Shown here: positions 1 to 18,588 of the stretch, piece by piece
Position numbering within the stretch: position 1 is the stretch's first letter
How the letters are laid out: each line of letters begins with the position of its first letter
NCBI GenBank assembly: GCA_002269645.1
Contig: NIVC01001527.1
Location: 8,141-72,140, forward strand
Direction of reading: 5' to 3'
Length of the DNA: 64,000 bases
From: Macrostomum lignano
Taxonomy: Eukaryota
Position numbers and translations under genes: made by a program
The notes under the pieces: model-generated
Database searches by the model: none
What the model was told of the DNA's origin: nothing
The model's input: the letters and a program-made list of their open reading frames with translations, nothing else

Positions 1-4
1 AACT

Positions 5-742
5 ATGAAAATTCCTTTCACAGACACCTTACTGACTTTTATGACCAAGAACCAAGAGAAAATCTCCGAGAAGCAGCTAAAGAACTACAGAAATCTAGTG
101 ACTTTTTCTCTTGTTAGAGATATAGAAATACTAAAGGTCCCAGAAGTTCTGAAACACATGTACGATAGCGGTGTCAACCTGACTAAATTCAAAAAGTACA
201 AGCACTTTAAACAATGGTTCGATTTGCCAGATCAGGCGGAAGTCATAAAATATCTAGAACAACAACAGCAACAACAACCACAACCACAGCAGCAGCAACA
301 TTTCACAGAAGTACTCAGGCAACTGGAAAATGCAGATCCGACTCAAGTAGCTAAATATAAAAATGATCACCCAGATGCCTGGCAACACTTAGAACAACAC
401 TCTCCAGATCGAATGAACAGAATCAAGCAAAGAGTTTTCACACCTCAACAAAGACAGGCACCACATGACAGTTCCATCTCTGAAAGTGAGCAGTCTTTTG
501 CATCACCTCCCCAGCAGCTACAAGCCCAACCAACTCCACAACCCCAAGACCAACCGCCCTCAACAGGAAAAGGAATTTCTGAAATCTACAAGCGAGTAGC
601 GGTTCTTCTAGGAGCAGCAAAGACCGGAATGAAAGATGAAAATAGAAAAGAATTTGTCAACATCCTGGACAAAATGATGGAAAAGAAGTATATTGACAAA
701 CGGGCGAGAGAGCTTCTGCTTTCGCGGTTCAACAAAAAATAA
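5..742 (+). CDS. Polinton accessory protein (Q/P-rich linker, helical C-terminal domain)
   Basis: 245-aa ORF. The C-terminus GKGISEIYKRVAVLLGAAKTGMKDENRKEFVNILDKMMEKKYI resembles, from recall, a helical domain recurrent in Polinton proteins. Not database-checked. Confidence 0.7.
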   Translation: MKIPFTDTLLTFMTKNQEKISEKQLKNYRNLVTFSLVRDIEILKVPEVLKHMYDSGVNLTKFKKYKHFKQWFDLPDQAEVIKYLEQQQQQQPQPQQQQHFTEVLRQLENADPTQVAKYKNDHPDAWQHLEQHSPDRMNRIKQRVFTPQQRQAPHDSSISESEQSFASPPQQLQAQPTPQPQDQPPSTGKGISEIYKRVAVLLGAAKTGMKDENRKEFVNILDKMMEKKYIDKRARELLLSRFNKK

Positions 743-758
743 TTTATTTCAAGTAAAA

Positions 759-1148
759 ATGCCGATTATTTTTGAGAAAGACGTGGACAAATACTATGAC
801 AAAGAGGAACTTAATCTCATTAAACGCGGATCTGGACTTTTCCCTGCAGGCCACTATCCAAGAAAAGAACGCTCTGGGAATGGCCTTGCCGATTTGATCG
901 CTCAGGGGGCCAAGATTTTTAAGGTCATTGGAGAGAACAAAGAGAACATCAAGAACGTTGCCGAAGCGGCTGGCAGTGTAGCCACAGCAGCCAAAAAGAT
1001 AAAGGATACTGTAACACCTAAACAAGAGATTCAGCCTCCACTGGCCCCGCTGGCTCCATTGGCCCCAAATCCAGACAGTGTGGACCCTGCAGTCTATGAG
1101 AAGATGAGGGCTAGCATTAAAAAAGGAAGTGGTTTCAAATTTGACTAA
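759..1148 (+). CDS. small Polinton protein, candidate virion core/cement precursor
   Basis: ATG at 759 in AAAAATG context, 129 aa. Contains three GxG motifs (KRGSG, RSGNG, KKGSG) and a PLAPLAPLAP segment. Confidence 0.7.
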   Translation: MPIIFEKDVDKYYDKEELNLIKRGSGLFPAGHYPRKERSGNGLADLIAQGAKIFKVIGENKENIKNVAEAAGSVATAAKKIKDTVTPKQEIQPPLAPLAPLAPNPDSVDPAVYEKMRASIKKGSGFKFD

Positions 1149-1174
1149 AGGGTACTTTCCGAGGGTACAAGACT

Positions 1175-1321
1175 AGTCCCGAAATGACACATCTAAGTCC
1201 CAAAATGACACATCTAAGTCCCGAAATGACACATCTAAGTCCCGAAATGACACAATTAAGTACCAAAATGACACATCTAAGTCCCAAAATGACACATCTA
1301 AGTCCCGAAATGACACATCTA
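1175..1321 (+). repeat. 7 x 21-bp tandem repeat (AGTCCCGAAATGACACATCTA)
   Basis: 147 bp = 7 units, directly upstream of the ATPase. Translates as MTHLSP(E/K) repeats in frame with the ATPase. Confidence 0.95.
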
Positions 1322-1360
1322 AATTATTTATTATTTAAATTTTTTTTTATCATAGAAAAA

Positions 1361-2161
1361 ATGGACTTTTCAAACGACTTCAATCCTCACTGGACGCGTA
1401 ATCAGATTAAGTTTTCTCATCACGAGTCAATTCCGAGTCACTTCAGATGCATTGTTGTTGGTTCATCAGGTTCAGGTAAAACATTCAGAGTCTTTAACAT
1501 GCTTCTTAGACCTGGCTTTATCGACTATGACACTCTGCACATCTACTCTCCCACACTGTATCAAGATGAGTATAAAATGTTGATTTCTGGATTGCAAAAC
1601 AAACTGCACAAAGAGGACATTATTGCATGTTTTAATAACCAAATGAGCCTTCCCAGTAACCCTGAAATTGTAGCTGCTGAATATGCAAAGCACCTCAAAG
1701 ACAATGAAAAATGGCAGAACATTAAAGTGTTCACCTATGGAGATCCACAGGCTGATCCAAAGACCAAACTTCTACCCCAACCAGATGAGCTAGAAAAGGG
1801 GAGAAAGCATTTGATCGTCTTTGATGATTGTATGACAGGCCCACAGAAGCAGATAGAAAACTATTTTACAAGAGGGCGACATAACAATTGCAATGTAATT
1901 TACATTGCACAGAATTGGTTCGAGCTCCCGAACAAAACAATTCGTGGGAACTGCAATCTGATTCTCCTGTTTCCAACCATTCCACAGGACAGGCTAAAAA
2001 GATTTTACAATGAGGTCATTGCGCCTGCCTATTTCATAAATCCAACAAAAAACTCAAGCAGAAAGATTTCACAAGAGGAATTCGTTAATCTTTGCTATGA
2101 CAAGTGGAATCAGCCTTACCAGTTTGTGATTATCAGCAAAGAAAAAAGAACTGTAATTTAA
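1361..2161 (+). CDS. A32/FtsK-like genome packaging ATPase
   Basis: Walker A GSSGSGKT, Walker B LIVFDD, and A32-type motif TRGRHNNCNVIYIAQ. The likely start is the ATG at 1361 (AAAAAATG). Confidence 0.93.
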   Translation: MDFSNDFNPHWTRNQIKFSHHESIPSHFRCIVVGSSGSGKTFRVFNMLLRPGFIDYDTLHIYSPTLYQDEYKMLISGLQNKLHKEDIIACFNNQMSLPSNPEIVAAEYAKHLKDNEKWQNIKVFTYGDPQADPKTKLLPQPDELEKGRKHLIVFDDCMTGPQKQIENYFTRGRHNNCNVIYIAQNWFELPNKTIRGNCNLILLFPTIPQDRLKRFYNEVIAPAYFINPTKNSSRKISQEEFVNLCYDKWNQPYQFVIISKEKRTVI

Positions 2162-2177
2162 AATTTGCTATTAAAAG

Positions 2178-2996
2178 ATGTCGATAAACTTTGCAGGTGA
2201 ATCCATTTCTGGCAACAGCGCTCTTACATCAGCTCAGATATCCATCCTTGACAGGCGATATATCAACAGCGACGAAAAGATCCCAGAGATCAAACTGAAT
2301 AAAAACAGACTGAAAGCCCTAGAGCGCTCCATGCACCAGTTGCAAATAAACATGGAAGATCTCAGGCTTAAAGTAGCTAGGCAGAAGTTTGAAAGTGATA
2401 AGCTTTATGCGCCGTTGTTAAACGCAACTAATGAACTAAGGTCAGAAATAACTTCGATAGTCTCGCTAATCAACGGCTTGAGATCATCAGTTAATCTTCT
2501 GGGAAATTCCACTGATAGACGGATGCGTATTCTCGAAGGAGGAGTTTTCACAAACACAGCTAAAGTAAATAATTTAGAAGAGTTCATGAACCAGTCAACA
2601 GCGTTGCATGATAGAATTAAAGAAAACGTCGCAACCAACACAGGTAAAGTCAATACTTTAGAAGAGTTCATGACTCAGTCAACATCGTTGCATGATCGAA
2701 TCAAAGAAAGACTTGATGCATTAGAGAGAAACGATGTATCACACAGTAGCTATCTAAACGGAATGTATAGCTCTTGGGGTAAAATAATAAGGAGGCTTGA
2801 TCGTCTGGAGAGAACACTCAATCTTCGTGATATTGCTATTGATGAAGCAGAATCTGCTGCTCGTCCGGTCATGTCTACAGATCGAGTAGAAGGAGCTCTG
2901 GACCCCGACGGAGTAATCCGGCACGCTCTCAAACGTCAGCCGCCCAGCCGCTGCCTGCTGGACTCGCGATCCTCCGGCGTCAAGAGAGCCGCCTAG
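2178..2996 (+). CDS. coiled-coil protein of the Polinton (possible fibre/stalk)
   Basis: 272-aa ORF with heptad-rich character and an internal 28-aa (84-bp) duplication at 2550-2717. Function is inference only. Confidence 0.65.
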   Translation: MSINFAGESISGNSALTSAQISILDRRYINSDEKIPEIKLNKNRLKALERSMHQLQINMEDLRLKVARQKFESDKLYAPLLNATNELRSEITSIVSLINGLRSSVNLLGNSTDRRMRILEGGVFTNTAKVNNLEEFMNQSTALHDRIKENVATNTGKVNTLEEFMTQSTSLHDRIKERLDALERNDVSHSSYLNGMYSSWGKIIRRLDRLERTLNLRDIAIDEAESAARPVMSTDRVEGALDPDGVIRHALKRQPPSRCLLDSRSSGVKRAA

Positions 2997-3088
2997 ACAA
3001 CCGGCGGTGCAGATGGAATTATCAAAAAGAAAACAGATCTTTCAACCGGATAGTTTTATAATTTTTTTTATTTTTTCTAGAGAAAAAA

Positions 3089-3838
3089 ATGGCCCAACAA
3101 AATTCTCTATACGATCAGTCTCAATATGCTGAACCTAAAATACCGACAGCACCAAACTCAATGGCACCGAATTCGAACACACAAAACCTGGCACCGAATC
3201 TGAATGCATCGAATCTGAATGCACCTCAATATTCAGACCGACTTTACCCCCTCATTACTTGTAACTCTCAGCAGTTTCGACTGGTGGAGATTCAAAAAAT
3301 GCGCGATGATCTTGAAAAAAATATTTTCCACAACACAAAGAAAATTAAGCGCTATGACAACCACTGTAAATTTTTCGACTACAGCAATATGATTCTAGGA
3401 TCTGTGTCTGTTCTATCTGGATCTGCTGCAGCTGTCTCAGTGTTGCCAGCCATCACAGCCCCAATCGCAATTCCACTTGGTTCAGTAGGTGCTGCATGTG
3501 GACTTATTTCAGCAATTACTGGAGCAGTAGCGCGAAACAGGCGAAAAAAACTAAAGCAGCTACAGGAGAAGCAAGTAAAAGAGAAAGGGGTGCACACATC
3601 AATCATAGGGTACATTTCAAGGGCAATCGAGGATAAGTTCATTTCAGAGGATGAGTTCAAAACCATTCAGGATCTTTATGAACAATCAATTCGAATGAAC
3701 TTGAACATGGTCGGTACTGATGACATGAGTCAGCTGAAAAATGAACTCGAGAAAGTTTTTCAACATTATGTGGAAAGAAAGTCGGCGAAAAATTCGGCAA
3801 GAAATTCGGCAAGAAGGACGACGAGGAATGCACAATGA
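3089..3838 (+). CDS. Polinton membrane protein with hydrophobic hairpin and N-terminal PTAP/LYPL motifs
   Basis: 249 aa. FRLVEI helix, then a ~47-aa hydrophobic Gly/Ala-rich segment (MILGSVSV...AITGAV), a basic stretch RNRRKKLK and ISEDEF. From recall this architecture recurs in animal Polintons. Confidence 0.75.
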   Translation: MAQQNSLYDQSQYAEPKIPTAPNSMAPNSNTQNLAPNLNASNLNAPQYSDRLYPLITCNSQQFRLVEIQKMRDDLEKNIFHNTKKIKRYDNHCKFFDYSNMILGSVSVLSGSAAAVSVLPAITAPIAIPLGSVGAACGLISAITGAVARNRRKKLKQLQEKQVKEKGVHTSIIGYISRAIEDKFISEDEFKTIQDLYEQSIRMNLNMVGTDDMSQLKNELEKVFQHYVERKSAKNSARNSARRTTRNAQ

Positions 3839-3841
3839 ACC

Positions 3842-4236
3842 CTATGAAACACAGCCAAGAATAATTTCCTTGTAGGTCTTTCGTGTTTTGGTCATTGCAT
3901 ACAAAACAGTCATGCACAGCTCACCGCAAATATCACTGCTAAGACCTTGGAGAATAAAGTCTGAGCGATAAATTTTTTTTTTTTCCCTTCATATAATTTC
4001 TTAGCTCTTCTGGTACTCCGTCCCATAGCTATCGAAGTAATAACACTTGTGCTTGCGATCGGGATCAATCACCCAGCAAACCCAATGAGATCCTGGCTTA
4101 TCGGTGGTGTCAAAGTTCATGATGCCGCATTCCTTTCTTAGAGGAAAATCGGCAGAGTGTCCCTCATAAATATTCCTCTAAAGTTTGGGATTTCCAGTTC
4201 GTTAGCCAAATCTTCGAGAAAGTTATTTGTTGTCAT
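3842..4236 (-). pseudogene. adenain-like (Ulp1/adenoviral C5-type) cysteine protease, three apparent frameshifts
   Basis: Not in the ORF track. Manual reconstruction: MTTNNFLEDLANELEIPNFRGIFMRDTLP/FPLRKECGIMNFDTTDKPGSHWVCWVIDPDRKHKCYYFDSYG/GVPEELRNYMKGKKK/IYRSDFILQGLSSDICGELCMTVLY...VS*. His (GSHW), Asp (YFDS), Gln and Cys (ICG) are present. Indels at ~4148, ~4023 and the T12 run at 3973-3984. Confidence 0.88.
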
Positions 4237-4309
4237 TTTTTATGAGGTTTATTAAACTTTATCTTAAACCTAAACCCAACCTCCACCTCCTAAACCCAAC
4301 CTCCTAAGC

Positions 4310-7300
4310 TTAATCTCCACCTCCTAAACCTAACCTCCAGTGCCCGAACGGTAGACTGTTGATATTGTCATCAAAAATGAATCTCTTGTTATCTGCACCT
4401 GACAGTCCAATCTTCTTTTGCCGAATTGTGTGAATAATATGGTTTTTGGATTGTAGCTTTGAGAACTCATGTGATGTCTTTTTGTTGCAATTCAAGGCGT
4501 CTCTGTATTCAGCTTCATTAATTTCCTTCCTAACGACGCGTTTCGGAATTCCCTTTGATTTTTTATTGGGTCTGACGACTCACATTTTACAAAATAGGAC
4601 TTTGCTCTCAACCCAATGAATTCAGTGATTATGTCACCAGCAATCTCGTCCTTCATTTTCCCAATCACTTTCTTGTTAGTGGCGTCAAACACTTGATCGC
4701 CATTCTGTGTCCTGAAAGATTCATCATACTCAGACAAGTCAAACAAATCTTTTTGCTGCAGCATGTCCTGATAAATATCTTCTGTTTGAATTCCATAATA
4801 AAACTGTCTGTGTCAGTGTACAAGAGTTTCATTTTATCCTTGTACTGCTGCTTCATGTCATAGAAGAACTGGTACATCAGACGTTTTGATTCGTCGAGAA
4901 CAGTGACACCTGTATAGATCGGCTTGCGCAGCGTCACCTTGGTTTTGTAAAATATGATCACACCTAAGTAGCTATTAAAGATATGGAGTTCTTTGAATGT
5001 TGGCTTTGACATATTTGCCTGAATAACAGCAGGCTCTGATGAGGTAACAAGTTTCAGGTTTGTTCTTTTCCGCTCATTCTCAAGAGTCTTGCCATAGACA
5101 GAGTTGTTGGCCAACTTAAAGAGGTTCTTGTCAAAGTCGTTGGTTGCTTTGGTCCTAAACTGGGTGTTCTTATCAATGTAGGGTTTCATCCACGCTTCCT
5201 CTGTAAATGTAAGAGCCCGTGAACTATGGTGACCCTGCAACCAAGTGAGATAAAATACTGAAGCAGTTTGTAATGGATTTTGTAACGTGTCTTGTTGTTT
5301 AGATTCTGTGTTAGTTTCTCTGTATGTTCTTTTTCTGTTCCTGACAGGTGCCAAGTTCCATTATTATCATTGGGAGTTTCGATTATTTTCGGGCACTTGA
5401 TGTTCTCTGGGAAGGGTGGAAAGTCAGAGAAATAGTCGTGAAGCTCTGGTGGAATGTAAACATCAACTTCATAAATGGCAGCCAATGAAAAGTCCCACTT
5501 TAGTTCTGATGAGGGTAGCCATCGAAAATCTGGAAGATCTTGACTCATCGCCCACCCGTAGAGATTATTAGCGTCCAAGTAAGTAATGTAGTTTGAGGGC
5601 TGCTCCTTATTGTAAGATTCAATGTAGGGATTGTTTGCTTTTGCATACCTGTTAACGCAAATTGAGATTCCCCCTCGCTTTGACGATTCGACAAAATTGT
5701 ACATGTCAATGTCTGTAAGAAGTTCAATGTACCAATCTGGATCTTGATCCCATTTCATTTTAAGCAAAGATTCCCAGCTAGTGGCAGGCAGAGACACATA
5801 ATGTGCTGGATCGAGGCCATATGCTGTGTACCAGGTGTATCTGAAGGTTTCAAACACATCGGCCAGCAGAAACACATCTGTGAAGAGGTAAAGCAGGTGA
5901 TACTGGAAGAAGTTTTGACAATTAAAGTAATTATAGACATGCTTCGCGTGCTCATAGTCTTTGTCAGAGATTCCAGAGTCTGTTAGCTTTGAAAAGAACT
6001 TTTCTTGTGGTGGCAAACCTTCTTCAAATACGTGATACCCAGTAATATTTTCATAGGGGTAGAAGCCTTTGGTTCTCAGGAGTTTAAATGATTCATCACT
6101 GTTGTTAATTTTACTTGCAAACATCTTTGTATATGTACATTGTTCATCTTTTAGATTCTTGCTTAGTTCGTCTAGACTGGCAGCTAGAAATTGATATGAA
6201 TCCTTCAGTCTTATTTTACCTGTACCCGAATTATCCTGTTTAATATCAACACACTTAAACTTCTCCTTGTTCTCTGCGATGCAGTCAAGGTGTATGTCTG
6301 GAATCATGCCGATTTTTTCAACTATTAAATGCATGTCATAGTTCTTTGCGTTGTGACAAAATATCGTTAGATCATGAATGTTCGATTTTAGCTTTAGATT
6401 ACAGGTGTTATGCGCTGCACCTCTAAATTTCCCAGTAAAGTGGCAGTGGTCCCTAACGGTGGGGTTTTTAATATTAGTGCAAGTTAAATGTTTCCTGCAG
6501 ATGTGGCAATGAGTTGCTGATAGGAAATTGCTTTCATCCTCCTCAGTCATCATTATTGGAACAGGTTGAAGGGTGCTAATCACTCTTTGCAACTCTAACA
6601 TTCTGGCAATAAACAGCTCCACACACTGCTCTCCAAAGAAATAATTATACTCAACAAGTCCTTTTGTAGTAATAAAGGCATATGCTACTGAATTGGGGAC
6701 ATGTTTTTGAGTTTGAGTTTGTTTTTGAGTTGGAGTTTGTTTTTGTGTTTCCGGCATGATTGAGCATTCGAAATCAGCATATACAACAAATGGGAGCTTC
6801 TCCATCTTGTGATAGTTCTTAAACCGAAGATACTTCTCTTCAGCTGAAGGAAGAGAGCAGTTGGTCGGGTGATCCTCGCATGATAATTCATGCTCTGCTA
6901 GTTTTTCAAAGCGTTCAGGTCCACTGTAATGCTTAAGGCACAAGCGGCAGATGGCAACAGCCTCGTGATGATTATTCAATTGCTTGTGAATGAGTCTTGA
7001 AAGATCTTTAATCCAAACATAGTGAGCCTCCTCTAGTAAATTACCAATCACTAGAAGATCCACTTCAATCCGCCTTTTCCCCTCAGGATCTAAAACGTCT
7101 TTGCTACATCTGACCGGTTGAACTTTCTCAGTTTTTTCACTCCACTCAAAGACTGTGATTCTAATTTTGTTATTAAACACCTCTTCTAGTTTTGGGATCT
7201 GAGAGATCGCCAAGCCTCCTTTGTCAAACCTGATTCCCTTCTTTTCGCATTCGATGAGATAGTAGTTGAAATAATTTTGATAATTTGAGGTTCTTTCGGG

Positions 7301-8164
7301 GTGGTGAGGGACACTATTATGAAAAAGTGCAGAAAGAACTGCCCATAGAGCACAGCAATTGTCTTTATTTTTAACATTTATGCAAGCTTTTTTACCGGCT
7401 AGCTTATGCGGGAGCTCTATATAAGAGGAGGCTTTAAGTGGGTCATATTTCATGACCATGACAGTCGCTCTTTGAATCCCTCCCACGACCCATCCGGAAC
7501 CTCTGGATGTAAACGCTTCAATTTTCTTAGTGACATCTTGAAGGAAAGGATCCAGTGTGTCAGTAGGGGTGAATGGTTTTGCCTTTGTTGTCATGTAATA
7601 CTCGAGATGCTCAGTGGGTTTCGCAGGCATATAAAACGCAATCTTGAATGATATCTGTAGTTTAAAGGTCTTGCGTGTTTTGAGTGTGTGATCAACAACT
7701 GATTGGATGCTGTCTTTATAGTCGTAGATGTTTGCGGTGGTACCGTTGGTGCCGTTTATTGGGATTGTGTGCTCTATGTAATGTTCTGTAAACTTCCTCT
7801 GTGCAAAATTAATCTCTTCAATGGCAAGCTCCAACTCTTTTAAATGGATTAATTGCTCTAATTTCTCTTGTTCCTGCTTATTTTGTGGGTACTTTGCTTT
7901 TTCACCAGTGAGAGTTTCGTATTTGTTAACTAAGTTGCGACTCCTCTCTTGGTGTTCCTTTGCAGAATTTTTTATAGGCGCATACTGGTTGGATTCTAAT
8001 TGATTGATGATTTCCAACTGTTTTTCATAGCTTCCCAGGTGACCAGGGTCTGTGTTGAACCTTTGTTTGCATGCTTCTCTTAGTAAATTACTTTTGTCTT
8101 GAAATGAGACGCCTTTTGAAAAATATCTGTTGACTAAATCTTTTGCTGGATTAGCTTTTGGCAT
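4310..8164 (-). CDS. polB: protein-primed family B DNA polymerase (pPolB) with EndoVII-like insert; three 1-nt deletions
   Basis: Exonuclease motifs [13 protein letters not shown] and [10 protein letters not shown]; polymerase motifs [20 protein letters not shown] and YTDTDS; RDHCH...AHNTCN Zn/HNH insert. Track ORFs 5186-8164, 4665-5354, 4492-4764 and 4310-4495 join into one protein when one base is added at each of ~5219, ~4786 and ~4560. Confidence 0.95.
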
Positions 8165-8288
8165 TTTTTTCTATAAAATAAAAAAAAATTTTGAGGGTGA
8201 CCACCCTGATAGAAAAGTTGAACTGTTTCTACATCCTATAAGTAGTGTTAGGTTTATGAAGCTGGATAAAGTGGGGTTTTAAACCTCA

Positions 8289-8747
8289 TCACATGCGCAT
8301 TATTGTAAACCCAGCATTGTGCAGTGTCATGATAGCTTTGACAATGTCAGACTTGCTTATAGAATTTTCATTCTCACAATCATCACGATCCGGGCAGCCC
8401 TCAGGGCAGCCCTCTCCTGCCTTAATTGTTATACCTTTGTCTCTTGCAATCTTTTGCAATTCTAGCTGGTGGGCTCTATCATTCCCAGCTTTAACAGCAG
8501 TTGCTACACCTCCAGCTACACCACCTGCGGCACTCACAGCGCCTGCAATGATCGGAATAAGAGCTGCTAATGGTAGGATTCCTCCTGACTTTTCATCTGT
8601 GATGCTGTGTCTTTGTTCATTACATTGAACTATTTGCTGCACGGGATCGACTTTTACTTTGGCACCTTTTATTGATATAAGACCTGGTTTCTTTGATTCA
8701 ATGATTTTATTGAGTTTATTGATGGTTCTGGTTTCAATCTTTGTCAT
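8289..8747 (-). CDS. adenovirus pX (pre-mu)-like membrane-active/core protein
   Basis: GGILPLAALIPIIAGAVSAAGGVA closely matches the adenovirus pX C-terminal motif as I recall it (GGILPLLIPLIAAAIGAVPGIA). Confidence 0.75.
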   Translation of the reverse strand: MTKIETRTINKLNKIIESKKPGLISIKGAKVKVDPVQQIVQCNEQRHSITDEKSGGILPLAALIPIIAGAVSAAGGVAGGVATAVKAGNDRAHQLELQKIARDKGITIKAGEGCPEGCPDRDDCENENSISKSDIVKAIMTLHNAGFTIMRM

Positions 8748-8763
8748 TTTTTATTTTAATATT

Positions 8764-9469
8764 TTAATTAATTTCCGTGTCAGCTGGTATTACTAGGAGT
8801 TCAGCTCTAGTGAATGACCGTGTGGGGGATTTAGGGTTAAAGGCCTGAGATAAAAAGTAATAGTCACCGGAGTCGGAGGTAAAATGTCTGTCTATTTTAT
8901 GTACATCAAGGCTGAAGTATGGATCTGTAGCTCTTCTTTTGGTGTCTTTCTCTAGCTCTCCATGTAGATATAAAAAGCGTAGAAACTCAGAGTTTGTCAG
9001 TATGTATGGTGATTCAACTCCTGGAAGCTTAGGGTAGTTCGAGGTGTCTGTTCTAAGAGATGACTTAAGTTCGACAGTGTCTTGTTTAATTGCATGGGAT
9101 GGTTTCAATCCAGTCATGCGTGTGACTTCATTGTTCAGTTGCTCTATAACAGTGGGGAGCCGGTCTGTCCACTTGGTATAGTATTGGCCACTTTTTAGTT
9201 TCAGCTCTTCAGCTGTCTGCTTAGTGAATAGCCTCTTGGCTAGAGTTAGATTGAATCTCTCAACGTACGCTTGGTCTCTGTGCAAGTTTGTTCTGCCATA
9301 GCGAATCTCTGTGTCATGCTTATGTAGAAGTGATTTCACTGCACCCATGAATTCTTTGCCAGGATCAGTCATAAAGGTTTCAGGGTAGCTAAGGGGTGAG
9401 TTTTTATAAATATCTTGGAGGGCGGCTGCAACTGCTTCTGACTTCTTCGTCTTGAGTGGGCGAGCTTCC
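8764..9469 (-). CDS. int: retroviral-type (rve) integrase, 3' part
   Basis: The frame is open upstream of the track ORF up to the insertion: (K)EARPLKTKKSEAVAAALQDIYKNSPLSYPETFMTDPGKEF...YVERFNLTL. Second Asp and Glu of the DDE triad are present. Confidence 0.93.
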
Positions 9470-10560
9470 TTCCCACTAAAAACGGGTTATCGGATTGACA
9501 TCGGAATCTGGCCGGATTTTAGCAGGGCAATCGGAATCTGGTGGAACTAGATTTGCAAGCAAAAAAACGATGAAAAATGTGCTCCAATGACATCCAAAAA
9601 CTACACAAAGTATTTCCTGGCTTTCTTTGCTTCTCGGAAGCACCCCGGAAACATACCGGAATATGAGGCTCCATATTCCGACCGGAATTTACACTGCACC
9701 CGAGCCGTCACTTTCCGACAATAATTTTGAACGCAAGCTTCGCAAAAATATCAGCATACTTATCAACTAGTATGATGACTGTCCACTTTGAAGAAAAAAC
9801 TCTTTTAGACGGGAATTCTGCGCCCTCGCAATTTGCAAGAAGAACAGCTAGCAAGCTTTGTTTTACGCGATCAAGTGTTGAAGCTATTGACCAGTTTAAT
9901 TTGCACACTTCCATTTTCACTAATTTGCGCTCGCTTGGAACATCAGCTCTTTTGAACACAGCTCCTTTAGCCAACACAGGACAGTGAGACCACAACTTTG
10001 AACTCTCTGCAACTTCATCTGTGGTTACACGCAAATACTATACTAGTATGCTACTCCTTTCGTTCATTTAGTGCATTTCTTTAGTCTCCTATTATCTTGT
10101 ATGCTTGAATTTTTTACTGGCGGACTATATAATCGCTAATTTCAGTAATAAAATATATTATTATTGTTTATTTGTGATAACAGCTAGCCAAAACTATTAT
10201 ACTATACCTAAAAAGAACAATTTGGTATACTGCAATACTGCATAGTGAGTTTTGACCATAGTGGCACTTGCAGAAGCTTATTAATATTTGAGTACAGTAT
10301 ATGATAGGCACCAATTGTCCAGCTATACATAATATATACTGACATTGTACTATACTCATAGCCAGTTTCAATTCAGACCATCGCAAAGTAGTAAACAAGG
10401 GCCAATTCTATAAATTCTATCTAGTGCTAGTCCTAGATTTCTCATATTGAAAGAGACTGCAAATTAAAATAATTGACTACATTGTGTACTAAAAACATAT
10501 AAGGCAAAAGCTAGTTCTAATAATAAATAAGTATTGTCATTTATTGATTAATTTGATTTA

Positions 10561-12471
10561 ATGGCTTTGCCAAGTCGTGCATCAAATAGACAGGTAGCCA
10601 GGGAAATGCAAGAAATACTACAAGAGCTTCCGACGATTGGGGCTACAAATATTGAGGCTAGGCTAGATCTAGAAAATGTGATGGGACAAAATGAAGATAC
10701 AAAGAGCAATGCTGAGCCTGAAGAGACATTCTTTGATGCAGTGGGTCCAATGCCAATGGACTTTGATAGCCAAATGCATGCTCTTTTTGAGGAAGAAATG
10801 GATGAAGAAGTTGAAGAACAAGATGACTCTCTTGGCTATAATAGACCTCCGCCACTTACTTTGGTGCAAGAGTTACTATTGTTTTACATAACATTCAATA
10901 TTACTAGTGCTGCCATGAATTACCTACTTCGGCTTTTGGCTCGTTTCTTCACTGACATACCCACTTCTGTCTACATGCTTAAGAGGCAGTGTCCAAGCAC
11001 AGAGATCACGAGGTTCAATGTCAATAATGGTCATGTTGCCTTTCTCTCCATTGTGGACAATTTGAAATTTTTACTTGATTCCAAAATCCTTACAATTCCA
11101 TCTGGAATTACAAACTTCTTTGTTTCCTTAAGGGTAAATGTTGATGGTCTTCCTTTATTCAAGTCATCTAGAATCAATCTTTGGCCTATATTGATGCTAG
11201 TAAATAATTGTTTTAGACCTGTGCCATTTGGCCTTTTTTGTGGCATTGGAAAGCCTGACCTACATGTCTTCTTAGAAAGGTTTTGTTCTGAAATTGCAGG
11301 TCTACAGAATGGTTTTGACTATAATATGAAAAGAATTTTTATTAAGTCAATTGTCTTTATCTGTGACACACCTGCTAGAAACTTTATTCAATGTTTGAAA
11401 GGTCATTCCAGTTATCTTGGCTGTAGTTGGTGTCGTCAAGTAGGAAATTACACAGGTGACAGAATTTGTTTTTCTAATACCATTGCAGAGGCTCGAACAA
11501 ATCAAGATTATGAACAAGGGCGTGAAAATAACCAACTTGGTATTTCTCCACTAGCCAGGATTGTTCCAATGTATTCCAATTTTGTACCCGACCCAATGCA
11601 TATTGTCTACTTAGGGGTTGTAAAGAAGTTGCTCAAATTTTACTTCCTTGGAGCAAAGCACATTCGACTTGCTTGCAAGTTGTCATCCCAATTAAAAGAG
11701 GAAATAAATAGAAAAATAATGTATATTAAGGAATTTGTTCCTTCAGATTTTCAAAGACGGCTTCGCACTTTTGCTGACATTGAATACTTTAAAGCAACGG
11801 AATTCCGCCAATGTCTTTTGTACTTTGGTCCGTTCCTTTTTAAGAATACCTTGCCAAAGGTCTACTTTAATCATTATCTATTATTGCATTGGTCAATTTC
11901 AGTCCTTAATTCACCTGAGTACTGTGAAATTTATTTTGATGCTGCTGAGGCTTGTTTGAAAAAGTTTGTTGCTGAGGCACCAAGCCTATATTACAACAGT
12001 GTAGTTTCTTATAATTGGCATGCTCTGTTGCACCTTCCTGAGTTTGTGCAAATGTATGGCCCACTTGACACGTTTTCAGCTTTCCCTTTTGAAAACTACT
12101 TGCAATTGATCAAGAAGAGAATTCGTTGTACCAATCATGTTTTTGCCCAATCTGTCAACCAGTTGTTGAATGTGAGATTTTTATATTCTAATGACAAGTT
12201 GGGTGACATTGGTTTTACTAATAAGAGTCCTAATAACTGTGCTATTGTTGATGGAAAGGTTGTCATTGTCACCAATTTAAATGATGGTCTTATTTCAGGC
12301 CAGGTTCTCACATTTGATAGAAGCCTTTATTCCTATCCATATCCATCAAAATCAATTGGCATAGGCTACTATAAGCATTCAAAGACATTTGTATCCAACT
12401 TGCAACCTTCTAAGAAGGCCATTCTAATTCCCTTTGGCGGAGACTATCTGGTCATTCCTTGCATCAAGTAA
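10561..12471 (+). CDS. EnSpm/CACTA-type DDE transposase
   Basis: Intact 636 aa. Motifs VNVDGLPLFKSS..LWPIL, FICDTPAR, KGHSSYLGCSWC, DPMHIVYLG, KATEFRQ, HALLHLP..YGPL...SAFPFEN. Confidence 0.92.
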   Translation: MALPSRASNRQVAREMQEILQELPTIGATNIEARLDLENVMGQNEDTKSNAEPEETFFDAVGPMPMDFDSQMHALFEEEMDEEVEEQDDSLGYNRPPPLTLVQELLLFYITFNITSAAMNYLLRLLARFFTDIPTSVYMLKRQCPSTEITRFNVNNGHVAFLSIVDNLKFLLDSKILTIPSGITNFFVSLRVNVDGLPLFKSSRINLWPILMLVNNCFRPVPFGLFCGIGKPDLHVFLERFCSEIAGLQNGFDYNMKRIFIKSIVFICDTPARNFIQCLKGHSSYLGCSWCRQVGNYTGDRICFSNTIAEARTNQDYEQGRENNQLGISPLARIVPMYSNFVPDPMHIVYLGVVKKLLKFYFLGAKHIRLACKLSSQLKEEINRKIMYIKEFVPSDFQRRLRTFADIEYFKATEFRQCLLYFGPFLFKNTLPKVYFNHYLLLHWSISVLNSPEYCEIYFDAAEACLKKFVAEAPSLYYNSVVSYNWHALLHLPEFVQMYGPLDTFSAFPFENYLQLIKKRIRCTNHVFAQSVNQLLNVRFLYSNDKLGDIGFTNKSPNNCAIVDGKVVIVTNLNDGLISGQVLTFDRSLYSYPYPSKSIGIGYYKHSKTFVSNLQPSKKAILIPFGGDYLVIPCIK

Positions 12472-13172
12472 ATCAAGTTATTTGCCTGAAGTCCATCGTC
12501 CATAATTGTGTCTTGCCTAAGTTGTTTACAAATGTAATTGTGTATACAGTCAGCAAATATAATTTAATTAGGTCTAGAATAAAAAAATATATAATTCCAT
12601 ATATATTATATAATATTGAAGTAGTATAGCCATTATAGCCATTAACAAACTAAAGCATTTGTTCGGATCATGGTATGAAATAAGATGATCATTATTATTT
12701 TTATTATTATTATTAATTAATTTTATTACAAAAAACAATTATTATTGTTTTGTATAATTTCTATGCTTTATTATAACCTTCCTAAGTGCTTGCAAATATG
12801 AGTACGTATTATTTAAGTAATGTGTCCTTCAATGTGAATGTCCTAGTCAGACTATTTATGATTTTTGTGGCAGAATTCTAGTGTAAATGTATTTTGACAA
12901 GTTGTCTACTAGTAAGTTAGCAAGTAGCAATAGGCCCCTATGAACAATTCAATAAACATTTTTTGTGTATCCTCTAAATTTGTAACTCACTTGTTCCAAT
13001 GGAATAATTACATGTTATGTGCCATATTATGCTGTAAAAACTTTAGTTACTGCTTGGCCAACATTACACCACAATGAGTAAATAGTCCTTCTTAGTACAT
13101 GCAGTGTCTTGTGCAGTTGCTAAATCATTAAATAATAAAACTTTAGTTCAGTAATCTTGTTGCAGTGACTCA

Positions 13173-15683
13173 ATGAAGTTTATTGTGTATTTTACCTCTG
13201 ACTATGAAGTAATAGAAGCTGATGAGGAAGATTGCCTTCTTGGCTCTTTTACTAAGTGGACTATTGAGCAATGGAGGCAAGTGGACAAACTTGAAGAAGT
13301 TCATATTCAGGTAATATATAATGACAAGTTGGAAGATTGCATTGTTTTGCAAGTTGTTCCACATGCCTGTGACACCAGTGACACTGTTGCCATGCTACGA
13401 GCTGTGGTCAAAGAGAAGCACTATCGTCCAAGCAAGCTACTAAAGATTCTGCCAGATCGTGTTCGATCCAACAAAAGACAGACATTTCCTCCTATGAAGA
13501 ATCTTGAGACAGACAATGATGCAACAGATATTGATGCTGTAAGTATAATGTAAAATAATATTTAATTTAATATTTAGTATACAACTAAGGTCTGCCACGT
13601 GCGTTAATATAAAATATAAAATAATATAATTGTAGGTTGCTGATGCAGCCAGCCATGGACAAGCCAACCGGGGTCCCACACAGAGAAGTGAATCATTGTC
13701 TGGGTCTTCTGGTGTTGTTTGCCTCCCTCCACTGCCAACTCTGCAAGCTTCGGGAATTGCAGAAGTACGTGCTTACATTTGTGTCTATTTAAAAATGTCA
13801 AGCATTTATAGTCTTTATGTATTCATGCATTTGGAGTACAGTATGCTTATTAATTTCAAATTATTGCACTTGGCAGTTTGCCAGACATATTACAAAATGA
13901 TTGAGACAGTTTTAATAGTTTGGATTTTATTCTTTTCTTTAATTTCTCTAATCTAACACTGTCTTCACCTCACCCCAATGCCAGGCTAGCGTGACGGCTT
14001 GTTGTCACACATCACATTGTTATGTTTATATCTATACACCTCTGTTATGTCTGCATCATCTCATTCAATGCGTGTATGGTTACTGTTGAGTATATCATTT
14101 CTCCTACTATGTTACAGATTAACGTGCTGAGAAAAAAATTATCTATTCTAATCATTTCTTTACCAACCCAGGCCTACGACGGCACAATGGCGCAGAGCAC
14201 TGTCAGGAAACTTCAGAACCGCACCTCCATGGCACCTCCACCAGAACCGCAGTCGATCGACAGCCCAGCCTTTGAGCGACTGCACCCTCAAGCAGCTCTC
14301 AATTCGTCTGGAAGCTCGACGCCTACTCGACACCCGTCTAGGCAGTTTTCGTGCACTCCAACTTCAGCCCCAAGAGCCAGCTTCTCGCGCGAACAGCTGC
14401 GACAGCCTGCGCAGGTAATTTGTAAAACTCGTTTCATGAAGTCTTGCAACAGTTTTTTTCAGAACTTGCCACGGTTTCTAACGAAAATTTAATCCACAGT
14501 TTTCAGCTCTGCCTCAGCTGGAAACGCAAGCCAGAAGCCAGGTTGAGGCTTGTGGGTACACGTGGGGATCTGTTGAAGGTAATGGAGTTATTGTTATTGA
14601 CGCTGAGATAGCAGTAGTTGACAACAGCCGCAAAATGTAACTGGTGACCAGCGCACACTCGTTGCTTGAACAGCTAGGTGGATGAAATCGACAGCGTCTA
14701 GCTTGGAACTGGCACGTAAATTGAAGTTAATTTACTATGCAACTTTCAACTCATTATTCAGGGCTCTACTGTCTGCAGCTCTTGAGCATTCGCGAACTCA
14801 TGAAGCTAAAGGCCACGATTGAGTCGTCCAGTCTCCGGGGAGCTGCTGCGGCACCCACGCTCGAAATTCCATTCGGGCTTCCTGTCGCAAATGAGGCCGA
14901 CCTCAACAGTGCAGTCGAGAAGATTTCTGCCAGTGCGGAGGCCAAGACTGCGCTGGTTAGTTAATATCTTATGAGCATTTCTCTTACTATTAAACTTCCA
15001 CCATGCGTTCGGAACTTCGGTACTGTAGACTCGGGGAAATGGTCCAGACGCTTTCATGTGTGAATTTTAGACTTCGTTCATTCAGAAAAAGTGCCTGGGC
15101 CCTTCTGTGACTCAGTCTGTTCGCTATGCGATGAACGAGCTTCTGGCGCGAGACTTCCAGCAGCGCTTCAATCGCACTGGCGGCAAGGATGCCCGAGGCC
15201 GTGGCCAACAAGAGAACTCCAAGATGTCTTTCGACAAGTGCTTTGGAGGGATTGTGAAGGGTAGGTTATGCTTTACTGTCGCATATGTACCAATTACCAG
15301 AGTTGATTCTTAATAGTGATATCAATAGTGATATACTGTCTGATACAACGTACTGATAAATGTACGGGGTGGGTACTGCCATAACCATACGTATTCATGC
15401 CGTAATTCATACATGTATTTCTCTCAGGTCAACAGTTGTGGACTTGACAACCTGCTTATGTTGTGATTGTCAAATTTCAGACGCGTTGGGCTCTTCATTT
15501 ACGCTGCACGACATCAATAAGGCAATCGAACGGTTCTTCGATGGCGTCCGGAAGCGTCGAAGCCACGAGGGATCAGCTGAATCGGACGTGGCCGGCGGGC
15601 ATGGCGCCCCCACTCCAAGCAGGCGTCGCTCGACGATGCGAGTGCAACGCATATCCGACAGCACTGACGAGGAAAATATGTAA
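13173..15683 (+). CDS. spliced accessory gene of the CMC element, DUF4806-like C-terminus
   Basis: GT-AG exons ~13173-13538, 13636-13764, 14172-14414, ~14500-14580 (uncertain), ~14762-14955, ~15086-15260 and ~15480-15683. The C-terminus LPVANEADL...SVRYAMNELL...FNRTG...KMSF...INKAIERFFDGVRKR fits my recall of DUF4806. Confidence 0.72.
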
Positions 15684-16555
15684 CTTGGTGGCATAGTAAA
15701 AAATTGTCCCTTTCGTCGAAACTTCGCGCTAACTTAAATTTTAACTGCTCCGAGACCGAAATGCTAGTGTAGTACAACTGGGTTTGAAGGCCGCGAATTT
15801 GAACAGTTTCACTACAGCAATTTAACGTCTTCAGTTCACTCGCAGCGCAGCGCCTTACAATTGTTCACTCGATTGCAGCGCGCTTTTCAAACTGGTGCGA
15901 TTATATTTTAATTAGACAACGATTAAAATAATTTATAATTAATATTTGCTTTATTTTCAAGGGTCAAAAAAGTAGAAATTAATAACATAATAATGCTATT
16001 TGCAATTGCTATAGTTACTATATAGCAACAATTAAATATTTAGTGCAATTTTAACAGAACATTTTCAGCCGCACTACACTAGGCCTAATCAAATTGACCT
16101 AACAACTATAAAATACTTGTCGAACTGTCTCCAACCTGCACCCTATTAGTGACTGCTTTGGTGGCCCACCACGCGTTGCTGCAATGTTCTATTTTGTAAA
16201 CACTAAATAAACACTTATTATTCCTTTCCATCTGCTGCCATTGAGCAATTTTGTATTTGATGTAAAATGATGCACACCCGGTCTTTGTGTCATTGAATTT
16301 TCAGACGGGATCGGGCTGTCTAAATGTACATGCGTGACTGCGTGTACACTGATCTTCGGCTACATTGTAGCACATGCATGTTTGTACTCGCTTTGTGCTT
16401 CGTCATTTATATCAGCTCGGAAAGTGAAACGAAAAGCTCTGGATGAGTCCGATCGTCAAATCCGATCAGAATCCGAATGGATTTCCCGGGACAAATTTCC
16501 ACTCGGTTTCCGAGCTGCATTTCCGATCGGAATCCGACCAAGCTTTTTTAGTGGG

Positions 16556-16845
16556 TTATATCTGGAAGCAATGTCAATAATTGTAAGAGCATACTTGTAG
16601 CCTGAGTCGTTGGGGAGAAACAAAAGATCTGCTTGGTGCGCTTCATTAGGTTTATAGATGCTAAAGTGAGGTCTTGTAAATTTTACTGGTGGGAAATAGA
16701 CTTGAAAGACAGCCTGCTTAGAGAGCCACTTTTCTACTTTTGCTTTTGGTTCCTTACTTAGTTCTGCGAGTTTGGTGACTGCATTTTTTCCTACAAAGAA
16801 TCCTTTGTCGCTGTAGTAGAGTTTTTTAAGTTTCTGATCTGTCAT
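16556..16845 (-). CDS. int: retroviral-type integrase, 5' part
   Basis: MTDQKLKKLYY...HQADLLFLP...YALTIIDIASRY. Removing the insertion and one TT copy gives TAT AAG GAA GCT (Y-K-E-A) and a continuous 331-aa ORF. Confidence 0.93.
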
Positions 16846-16875
16846 TTTTTTAAAAAGAAAATTTAAAATAAAATA

Positions 16876-17403
16876 ATGCAACGCTCTGGTGGTAAGTTAG
16901 ATTCACATGGACTGATAGAAAAGCTTCCTCATCCAAACAAAGGCTGGACACTTCCCGGCTATAAATATTGCGGGCCTTTGAATCCACTTGAAATACAGTT
17001 AGATAAAAACAATAATCCACATCCTGGGCATGAGCCTGTGAACGAGCTAGACTCTGTCTGCATGTGGCACGATGTTAAATATAGAGATTTTCCTGAGGAG
17101 AAGAATCGCTGGGACAAAGAAATGCTTAAGAGACTAGACAATATAGGGGCTTCAAGCGGATTTCGTGAGTCGATTGCTCGGAAGCTAGTTAAAGCTGTTA
17201 TTTTTAGTAAGGCAAAGTTGGGTTTGGGGGTTCAAGGCGAAGGTGGGTGTTTGGGGAGAGAGGGCGGGTGTGCGGAAAGAGAGGGCGGAGGCTTGGAAGC
17301 AGGGTTTATTTTGTGTGCTCCTAACAAGAAATTGGGAAGACTGCTGAAAGAGCTGGGGGTAGAGAGAGCGCGCGTGGGGGGGGGAGAGAGATTTTCACTT
17401 TAA
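16876..17403 (+). CDS. parvovirus VP1u-like phospholipase A2 protein
   Basis: LPGYKYCGPLN Ca-binding loop, EPVNELDSVCMWHDVKY catalytic HDxxY helix and a downstream Asp (RWDKEM); Gly-rich tail. Confidence 0.88.
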   Translation: MQRSGGKLDSHGLIEKLPHPNKGWTLPGYKYCGPLNPLEIQLDKNNNPHPGHEPVNELDSVCMWHDVKYRDFPEEKNRWDKEMLKRLDNIGASSGFRESIARKLVKAVIFSKAKLGLGVQGEGGCLGREGGCAEREGGGLEAGFILCAPNKKLGRLLKELGVERARVGGGERFSL

Positions 17404-17508
17404 CTGAGCCCAGCCGGGGAAGAATTCCGTCTCGAGTGAAGGCCAGAATGCAAAGGATTTCGGCCTCGCGCGAGGCCAAAATGAAAACGATTTTGGCCTT
17501 TCAGTTTT

Positions 17509-17745
17509 TTAACGCAATTGCTTAATGATTTCTGCAAAGTTATAGTAGCTGTCGTAATCTTTTACATAGGTTACTCCATACTTATGAAACCAGTGTCTTT
17601 GGAGAGCTAGATTAATATTAGGGACATTGATATGAACGTCGGGCCAATATTTTTTCATGTATTCGCTGCATTCTAGTTTGCATCGGTACTTGGATTTGTA
17701 CAATGGATGAGTATAATAGGAACCTGGAGAGACAACTGGAAACAT
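17509..17745 (-). CDS. small Tyr/His/Trp-rich hypothetical Polinton protein
   Basis: 78-aa ORF with the same poly-A ATG context as the other element genes. No family recognised. Confidence 0.5.
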   Translation of the reverse strand: MFPVVSPGSYYTHPLYKSKYRCKLECSEYMKKYWPDVHINVPNINLALQRHWFHKYGVTYVKDYDSYYNFAEIIKQLR

Positions 17746-17946
17746 TTTTTTATTAAGAATTTAATTTTTTTTCAAAGGGTAAGGACCCTGGGTTAGGGGG
17801 TTTAAAGTCTTTGGGATCAGGTTTCGCCGCTTCGGATTGAATGTGGGGAGAATGCAGATTATTTTCTGATTGTTTCTGGGTGGATGTTAGTGGATTATGT
17901 CAGTGTCAATGAGCATAACAGGTGTTAGTGGACACCTGTTATGCAC

Positions 17947-18202
17947 TGATTCTGTCAGGGATAATATGGATGGATTTAATACGATTATGTTCGAAGTTTT
18001 CGGAGCAAGTGCGACCCCTCCACTTTTTCATGATTCTGTCGGGGATAATATGGATGGATTTAATGGGATTATGGAGGACGTTTTGTGAGCGAGTGCGACC
18101 CCCTTTTTTTTCTGATTCTGTCAGGGATAATATGGATGGATTTAGGTGGATTATGGAGGACGTGAAAAATTTTGTCCCAGAAGCCCCCTCATGCCTTCTA
18201 CT
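17947..18202. repeat. three ~83-bp direct repeats in the presumed right terminal inverted repeat of the Polinton
   Basis: TGATTCTGTC(A/G)GGGATAATATGGATGGATTT starts at 17947, 18031 and 18113; the region ends in CTTCTACT. Confidence 0.7.
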
Positions 18203-18588
18203 CAAGGATGTGAAAGCAAACTGCTTAATCACAAGGATAAATTTTGAATTAAAGGAGGAAGGAAAGATTCCCCGAGTTGTAATCCAATATTGATTTGGCA
18301 TATGATAGTTATTAATTAGGCAATATTGATTATCTGTAAATTTTGTGTACAGTAAAACAAAGGTTTCTGAGGTATTTTTCATTTTTCGTGAAATCTTTGT
18401 AAATATAAAGAATTTTACAATTATTAAAACATTCCAGACTTCTAATTAAAATTAAAACACTTGCTATTAAATTTTTTTATCAGAATCAGCTGATTATTTA
18501 TATTAATATAAAACTCACGTAGAGGTCAAATACTTTTTCAACTATACCTGTACACCTGTTTTTCGTTGTCAATGGGTGCACGAATTAA

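Follow-up and report, generated by a model that had tools for sequence, protein, structure and literature searches.

A decayed Polinton copy in Macrostomum lignano encodes a SLATT-like hairpin protein from a family with late-domain-type motifs in its N-terminal tails

We have analysed a 64,000-nt stretch of the Macrostomum lignano genome (contig NIVC01001527.1, G000:C1527:8141-72140), called the window below. It begins inside an element that, as judged from its sequence, is a genuine Maverick/Polinton, i.e. an adintovirus with a Beta-type polymerase, class Polintoviricetes. The element measures 22,546 bp between its terminal inverted repeats (TIRs), and 7,086 bp of that are foreign. TIRs of ~690 bp and a 6-bp target duplication, CAAGGA, flank it at both ends; 6-bp duplications were also found in three of the five other copies with both ends read. 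The left TIR lies at C1527:3797, and the left TIR, the major capsid protein (MCP) gene and a penton-like gene lie 0.5–4.3 kb upstream of the window. One gene of the element, for a SLATT-like hairpin membrane protein, belongs to a family whose N-terminal tails carry late-domain-type motifs; it is the main subject of this work. The features, with open reading frames (ORFs), are as follows.

G000:C1527:3797-7634 (outside the window): left TIR, 78-aa TIR ORF, split penton-like gene and 428-aa double-jelly-roll MCP (ORFs, Pfam, phmmer)
1..742, + strand: 3′ part of a 405-aa ORF, function not assigned, which starts upstream of the window (ORF listing)
759..1148, + strand: 129-aa ORF (ORF129); Gly-x-Gly occurs at three sites, and one helix is amphipathic
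1184..2161, + strand: A32-like packaging ATPase (Pfam Pox_A32, E 5e-6)
2178..2996, + strand: 272-aa coiled-coil ORF with no assigned function, differing between copies
3089..3838, + strand: SLATT-like hairpin membrane protein, 249 aa (hydrophobicity, model, Foldseek, motifs)
3843..4238, − strand: adenain-type cysteine protease, frameshifted, coordinates approximate (motifs in two frames)
4350..8164, − strand: DNA polymerase B of the protein-primed kind (pPolB), three ORFs, 3′ end approximate (PolB motifs, phmmer)
8289..8747, − strand: stand-alone 152-aa pX-like protein (Adeno_PX, E 4.5e-7)
about 8764..9469, − strand: rve integrase, 3′ part (ORF listing, sister-copy ORF)
9470..16555, + strand: CACTA-like DNA transposon, 7,086 bp, foreign to the Polinton (termini, ORFs, duplication)
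16556..16845, − strand: rve integrase, 5′ part (ORF listing, Pfam)
16876..17403, + strand: parvovirus-type PLA2 without a fused pX domain (Pfam, E 7e-14)
17516..18202, − strand: right TIR, ~690 bp, overlapping a 78-aa ORF at 17509-17745 (TIR comparison)
18203..18208, + strand: 6-bp target site duplication CAAGGA

The original prediction for this locus had described a near-intact, virion-forming Polinton-like virus with three membrane-interaction modules; the element does encode a capsid, while virions, entry and exit are predicted from its genes. ORF listing, Pfam, the structure model and the motifs agree with it on the PLA2 (16876-17403), pX-like (8289-8747) and hairpin (3089-3838) genes, and its right terminus at 18202 is borne out. 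It had also pointed upstream of the window, where the left TIR, the double-jelly-roll MCP and the penton-like gene were indeed found; the 428-aa MCP ORF is whole in seven of nine contig copies (per-gene intactness was counted among the contig copies covering that gene). The element is far from near-intact: a transposon of 7,086 bp splits the integrase, and pPolB, the protease and the penton-like gene are in pieces.

The hairpin protein has a single hydrophobic stretch at about residues 101-148, immediately followed by the basic segment RNRRKKLK. Its structure model and hidden Markov model (HMM) comparisons were made with 112 family sequences. The model, with a predicted local distance difference test (pLDDT) score of 83.6, consists of a low-confidence tail (residues 1-57), helices 58-117 and 124-182 with a short turn between them and two C-terminal helices; the tail, with pLDDT 50-67, is likely disordered. 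Pfam gave no match over cut-off, and a fold search of the PDB gave nothing at E<=0.001. The best viral matches in Foldseek, with E from 1.5e-6 to 2e-4, were to uncharacterised proteins of iridoviruses; giant-virus proteins came next, several of them annotated SLATT. The two-helix hydrophobic hairpin with flanking helices that makes up the SLATT layout is present. Scores fall below the curated SLATT cut-offs both for the best family member (SLATT_5, 27.0 versus 29.5, E 3.4e-6) and for the window protein (NCBIfam SLATT_1, 16.2 versus 41), and we therefore name the protein SLATT-like only. Homology to RTX or translocator proteins was rejected (RTX in 28 of the 112 members, all below cut-off; AopB at E 3e-4). 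The ratio of non-synonymous to synonymous substitution rates (dN/dS) for the hairpin gene is 0.23-0.43 in four pairs; all dN/dS pairs in this work include the window copy, so that one sequence is common to all and the pairs are not independent.

Two motifs of the window protein, PTAP at residues 19-22 and LYPLI at 52-56, lie in the N-tail. For the hairpin-protein family the best 150 of 188 clusters at E<=1e-3 were taken in, and motifs were counted in 125 members, the remaining 25 having been dropped for an N-tail shorter than 12 aa or the absence of a start Met. Shuffled tails served as background, with the rest of each protein as a second comparison. YPxL occurs in 87 of the 125 tails (shuffle mean 2.05, maximum 8), [LIVMF]YP in 115 (mean 5.9, maximum 15) and P[ST]AP in 54 (mean 0.75, maximum 4); the rest of the 125 proteins, six-fold longer, contains 0, 0 and 2, respectively. 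The 94 members found by the core alone show similar motifs (YPxL 64, [LIVMF]YP 87, P[ST]AP 37), and strict patterns of both types occur together in 39 of the 125 tails. The distance to the core varies from 6 to 52 residues for YP and from 5 to 46 residues for PSAP; PSAP comes first in 31 tails and second in 19. On a quick tree PSAP requires 30 changes, with eight of these changes forced by well-supported branches. Neither motif is present in any of the 25 pX/PLA2 homologues or the 11 other element ORFs used as controls. Since positions float, both orders occur, PSAP changes often and the controls are empty, the motifs behave as short linear motifs, and at the level of sequence their pattern is that of ALIX plus TSG101 late domains. 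The late-domain idea was part of the original prediction and is strongly supported by the family counts.

P(S/T)AP is described as binding TSG101, and YPXnL as binding ALIX (PMC4452911, PMC8402826). Proteins with an ALIX V domain and with a TSG101 UEV domain are both encoded in the host genome. ALIX is found on contigs C3039, C2509 and C1209, TSG101 on C629, C1162 and C1163, and the window flank on another three contigs, the assembly being redundant by a factor of about three. A single open frame (L033:1255-1992) encodes the UEV domain of host TSG101, which differs from the human PTAP pocket at about two positions. When this domain was modelled in complex with the PTAP tail, the median was 0.03 (runs 0.03, 0.32 and 0.00; mark 0.34), and we use the result neither for nor against binding. 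We regard the motifs as probable ligands of ESCRT in some capacity.

In the explanation that we favour, drawn by analogy with orbivirus NS3, the hairpin protein would recruit host ESCRT through the YPxL-type and P(S/T)AP motifs of its N-tail, and capsids would be released in vesicles by a non-lytic route; we judge the chances of this proposal to be evenly balanced. The hairpin would be embedded in the plasma membrane or in that of endosomes and have its two ends in the cytosol, a topology suggested by the basic RNRRKKLK after the hydrophobic stretch and by the fact that no signal peptide was seen. The N-tail would bind ALIX and TSG101, the conserved C-terminal helices would dock capsids or oligomerise, and the capsids would leave the cell inside vesicles without lysis. 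Bluetongue NS3 has 228 aa, an N-tail with PSAP and PPRY, two transmembrane (TM) helices and a capsid-binding C-tail (PMC4452911). What the hairpin protein resembles is a small protein with two TM helices, from a virus lacking an envelope, whose late domains, PSAP among them, lie in the N-terminal cytosolic part and which drives non-lytic release (PMC4452911). The differences are that the second motif is PPxY in NS3 but of YPxL type in the hairpin family, and that the element is a DNA virus, the role of its hairpin protein being predicted. NS3 is an analogue only; homology was rejected, Orbi_NS3 (PF01616) matching 2 of the 112 members with a best E of 0.0022 (18 bits versus a cut-off of 27).

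Context for the hairpin family came from a second metagenome scan, in which 198 pattern matches yielded seven loci; nothing was found in IMG/VR or in the first metagenome scan, and looking up 10 clusters of the family yielded a name for none of them. Two of the seven loci (L025 and L026) place the hairpin gene within a Polinton capsid module. L026 is a distant Polinton with PLA2, pX-like and hairpin proteins as separate ORFs; the pX likeness of L026:3197-3799 consists solely of an aligned Gly-Gly-hydrophobic motif, and pairwise BLAST of the pX-like protein, ORF129 and the 405-aa ORF against the L026 ORFs gave nothing significant. The 425-aa neighbour of the hairpin gene in L023 had no PDB match, an hhalign probability of 0.6 and a model pLDDT of 39.9.

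Several observations weigh against the egress proposal. Only for L025-L027, which form one lineage, is the Polinton context clear, and there the protein has neither tail nor motif. Of the loci that do carry motifs, L022, L023 and L028 offer little sequence, and the large neighbour there reaches only Capsid_N E 0.013, its capsid identity being unproved; most relatives come without known genomic context. The window motif LYPLI misses strict YPxL, Ile standing at that position in 14 of 119 tails, and 71 of the 125 tails have no PSAP. The 25 relatives dropped from the 150 have short or missing tails, and four of them still show the YP motif. A YPx[LIV] motif is, besides, compatible with the YxxPhi signal for adaptor sorting. 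Assembly of Polinton capsids presumably takes place in the nucleus, and the step to cytosolic membranes is then unexplained. No virions have so far been reported for Maverick-Polintons. Finally, the hairpin is weakly hydrophobic (KD19 maximum 1.85) and resembles RTX/translocator hairpins, which suits a pore-former.

This last point bears on a second explanation, in which the motifs bind ESCRT for the protein's own sorting or control: a pore-forming SLATT would serve lytic egress, host-cell killing or defence against superinfection, with ALIX/TSG101 or YxxPhi sorting timing its removal or routing it to late endosomes. The SLATT annotations among the iridovirus and giant-virus neighbours in Foldseek, the SLATT_5 match of one member and the RTX-like hairpin all agree with it, and polisuvirus SLATTs have been proposed to act in abortive infection or lytic egress (bioRxiv 10.64898/2026.10.13.758929). 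However, the two late-domain types found together in 39 of the 125 tails are typical of budding proteins (PMC8402826), and a lytic pore would gain little by recruiting repair machinery. We hold this explanation to be rather unlikely.

Under the egress proposal, entry would be left to other genes: by published analogy, virion-borne PLA2 and a hydrophobic pX-like peptide released by adenain would breach the endosome. The PLA2 protein matches Phospholip_A2_4 (PF08398) with 52.3 bits against a cut-off of 23.9. It has a Ca-loop-like YCGP and a His-Asp dyad, with H65, D66, Y69 and D80 invariant in all 11 aligned sequences; matches to VP1 of adeno-associated virus were weak (E 0.02-0.7), and dN/dS is 0.17-0.52 over the first 118 codons. 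The catalytic dyad and the Ca-loop-like motif are shared with the PLA2 of parvovirus VP1u, whereas the element's PLA2 is a separate small gene, not fused to a capsid protein. Pfam found no Adeno_PX match in it; the homologue search covered proteins of 96-307 aa, PLA2-pX fused forms being outside its aim.

The pX-like protein scores over the Adeno_PX cut-off at residues 52-84. Its KxGG|ILP boundary is conserved, with the hydrophobic segment directly after it, and 10 of 16 homologues (124-157 aa) cover 94-99% of the protein, i.e. are full-length stand-alone proteins; dN/dS is 0.17-0.31. As in adenovirus pX, a hydrophobic segment comes after a Gly-Gly site, but no Arg-rich DNA-binding peptide like that of adenovirus mu is seen before this site. 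Cleavage there by adenain is predicted after the model of adenovirus processing. Since Adeno_PX matches nothing but the hydrophobic segment behind the site, the DNA-condensing core role is not supported.

The PLA2 and pX-like genes are separate and lie on either side of the integrase, as had been predicted, together with the remark that some adintoviruses fuse them. Alpha adintoviruses do have PLA2 fused to pX as PLA2X, which is called characteristic of them (PMC8502044, section 3.2); the element has a Beta-type polymerase and yet a PLA2, unfused. One X16 contig joins 8340 to 16879. Its reading as a PLA2-pX fusion was rejected, since the two genes are on opposite strands, and we take the contig for a deletion derivative. 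The PLA2 and pX-like genes are real and under purifying selection, but ordinary for the group, as are the capsid genes and the element as a whole. The same holds for the predicted set of three membrane modules: all three genes are present, but their arrangement is not special or new, because Polinton PLA2 and several membrane-active genes have been published for adintoviruses, in three classes named PLA2X, GasderminX and Cupiennin (Starrett et al., PMC8502044), and because L026 has the same three separate genes.

A third explanation makes the hairpin protein itself an entry factor, carried along with the particle and letting the genome escape through a pore that it forms in the late endosome, with the motifs aiding back-fusion or endosomal positioning. 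The same has been proposed for SLATTs of cryptophyte Polinton-like viruses (PLVs), where lipases are absent (PMC12220804). The element, however, already has PLA2 and the pX-like peptide. Moreover, neither Gly-Gly nor Gly-x-Gly occurs in the hairpin protein, in contrast to the pX-like protein, PLA2 and ORF129, and it thus does not resemble a virion protein processed by adenain; an entry role is, in our estimate, improbable.

ORF129 has an amphipathic helix after its second Gly-x-Gly (residues 38-55, hydrophobic moment 0.57) and a dN/dS of 0.21-0.24 in two pairs, and matched no family. It is possibly a fourth membrane-active virion protein, a candidate that we assume might be Cupiennin- or protein VI-like. 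An ORF of the size of ORF129 adjoins the MCP gene in L026.

For SLATTs the published roles are an entry pore (PMC12220804) and abortive infection or lysis (10.64898/2026.10.13.758929), and SLATT is labelled on two adintovirus maps in Fig. S2 of PMC8502044. The hairpin protein shares with the SLATTs of PLVs and Nucleocytoviricota (PMC12220804; 10.64898/2026.10.13.758929) the helix-hairpin-helix 2TM layout, Foldseek similarity and weak HMM likeness; it differs in lying below all curated cut-offs and in carrying the late-domain tail. No mention of late domains or ESCRT was found in the accessible parts of the adintovirus literature (PMC8502044; 10.64898/2026.06.19.733378), and neither Polinton late domains nor ESCRT egress was found among the top-ranked papers of the open-licence literature. 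Sections of further papers were drawn on (10.1101/697771, PMC8097293, PMC11071308, PMC3671162, PMC11071296, PMC4880917, PMC9503650). We have thus not met the late-domain finding in print; the protein itself, compared by description only, may equal the published GasderminX, Cupiennin or SLATT.

Formation and release of Polinton particles is a long-standing open question, and the conserved pair of late domains makes egress directly testable. As a tentative and somewhat doubtful generalization, a dedicated NS3-like egress protein (a SLATT-like hairpin with ALIX/TSG101 late domains) could be encoded by many Polintons of animals, perhaps also by related PLVs and iridoviruses, all of which would exit quasi-enveloped in extracellular vesicles. 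If true, quasi-envelopment would explain both the scarcity of naked Polinton virions and germ-line entry without killing of tissue. If the egress proposal holds, particles would be expected in vesicle fractions and not among naked capsids. Late domains also offer viral SLATT-like proteins a role other than those of the published pore models.

The TIRs, 6-bp duplication, pPolB, rve integrase, A32 ATPase, adenain and double-jelly-roll MCP are all shared with described adintoviruses/Maverick-Polintons (PMC8502044; bioRxiv 10.64898/2026.06.19.733378). The MCP matches Pfam DJR-like_dom (E 1.5e-4) and, by phmmer (E 9e-15), an MCP which itself scores 9e-54. The penton-like gene is a 287-aa ORF beside the MCP gene in six of nine contig copies; it has no Pfam match, but an ORF of equal size in a distant Polinton is similar to it (E 3e-8). 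In sister copies the protease ORF matches Peptidase_C5 (E 3.6e-4) and the integrase ORF matches rve (E 5e-10). The pPolB, which carries an endonuclease VII-like insert, matches the polymerase of a distant Polinton contig (phmmer, E 8e-110). With Pfam, PF03175 gave no match to pPolB in the window or in sister copies; it is therefore placed with the Beta-type adintoviruses under the definition of PMC8502044, section 3.1. The pfam03175-type PolB and fused PLA2X that mark Alpha adintoviruses are both absent from the element.

The window copy is broken in four core genes: the integrase (pieces at 16456-16845 and about 8764-9469), pPolB (three ORFs), the protease (no single ORF) and the penton-like gene (127 + 153 aa). 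The CACTA-like insert that splits the integrase makes up about 39% of the span 1-18202. It has short inverted termini, a 2-bp duplication, a 636-aa transposase-like ORF (10561-12471), a Pfam match to DUF4218 (E 0.009) and a second, spliced gene at about 13165-16400, with six GT..AG joints in all four sequencing runs guessed to be RNA; a joint spanning the insert was present in three of the four. Two contigs with the same Polinton insertion site are free of the transposon and have a whole protease ORF, and one of them also has the penton-like gene split; the CACTA-like insertion is thus haplotype-specific and younger than the Polinton insertion. Indels and mismatches numbered 15 versus 21 in 6,451 nt of near-identical contigs, but 1 versus 101 in 4,429 nt for one diverged copy. 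Since single-base indels are common between near-identical contigs and rare against the diverged copy, some frameshifts may be assembly noise. The transposon insertion and the penton split look real.

Besides the MCP gene, single ORFs among contig copies were counted in 6/9 cases for the penton-like gene, 8/10 for the integrase and 0/10 for pPolB. With the hairpin core as query, 150 of 558 candidates were scored and yielded at least 151 matches, of which the 150 listed are 84-100% identical. Because of the assembly's redundancy such copy counts overstate the number of insertions. The Polinton family is young and abundant and, with dN/dS below 1 in all seven genes tested and 0.09-0.13 for the MCP, under purifying selection; the window element is a decayed chromosomal copy of this many-copy family with a full capsid gene set. 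These data bear on a fourth explanation, namely that the family is by now confined to spreading inside cells as a transposon with its membrane genes as relics, or that the motifs are a structural N-cap without an ESCRT partner. The lack of a single-ORF pPolB in any of the 10 contig copies and the existence of tail-less relatives speak for it. The low dN/dS values, the floating position and order of the motifs in a low-pLDDT tail, and the many single-base breaks that look like assembly noise speak against it, and we consider it quite unlikely. None of the runs containing the element is recorded as RNA. Spliced contigs occur in the four guessed-RNA runs, and these reach every one of the 30 bins of window 1-18300; we rejected them as evidence of expression, for a DNA run has an equal element-over-flank contrast, the family being multi-copy.

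Variation within the family is uneven. The block of the 405-aa ORF, the 129-aa ORF and the ATPase (L001:5166-6383 and window 759-2996) exists in two allelic forms of 59-60%, 84% and 87% identity, beside an MCP that is 98-99% identical, which suggests module swapping within the family. The two TIRs of the window copy (17516-18202 versus L001:1298-1986) agree at 97-99% in their outer 300 bp and at 72-87% in their inner 400 bp, and those of one other copy are 99.6% identical. A 78-aa ORF of no known family lies at the inner end of both TIRs (17509-17745; L001:1754-1990) and has a dN/dS of 0.23-0.38, i.e. it is under purifying selection; the ORFs of the two window-copy TIRs differ from each other (dS 0.59, dN/dS 0.29). 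The uneven TIR likeness points to recombination between co-existing variants. A sister copy has the 405-aa ORF interrupted by a LINE-like retroelement of APE-RT-RNase H type that also contains a PWWP/PHD ORF, the insert being in frame with the N-terminus of the 405-aa ORF (L015:5355-9500, L016:3-2147). Beyond the element, the flank contains a 304-aa low-complexity ORF matching no family (window 18589-19503), and dense minisatellite arrays (units of 19-51 bp) with CT-rich tracts (window 21000-59000) fill the remainder of the window.

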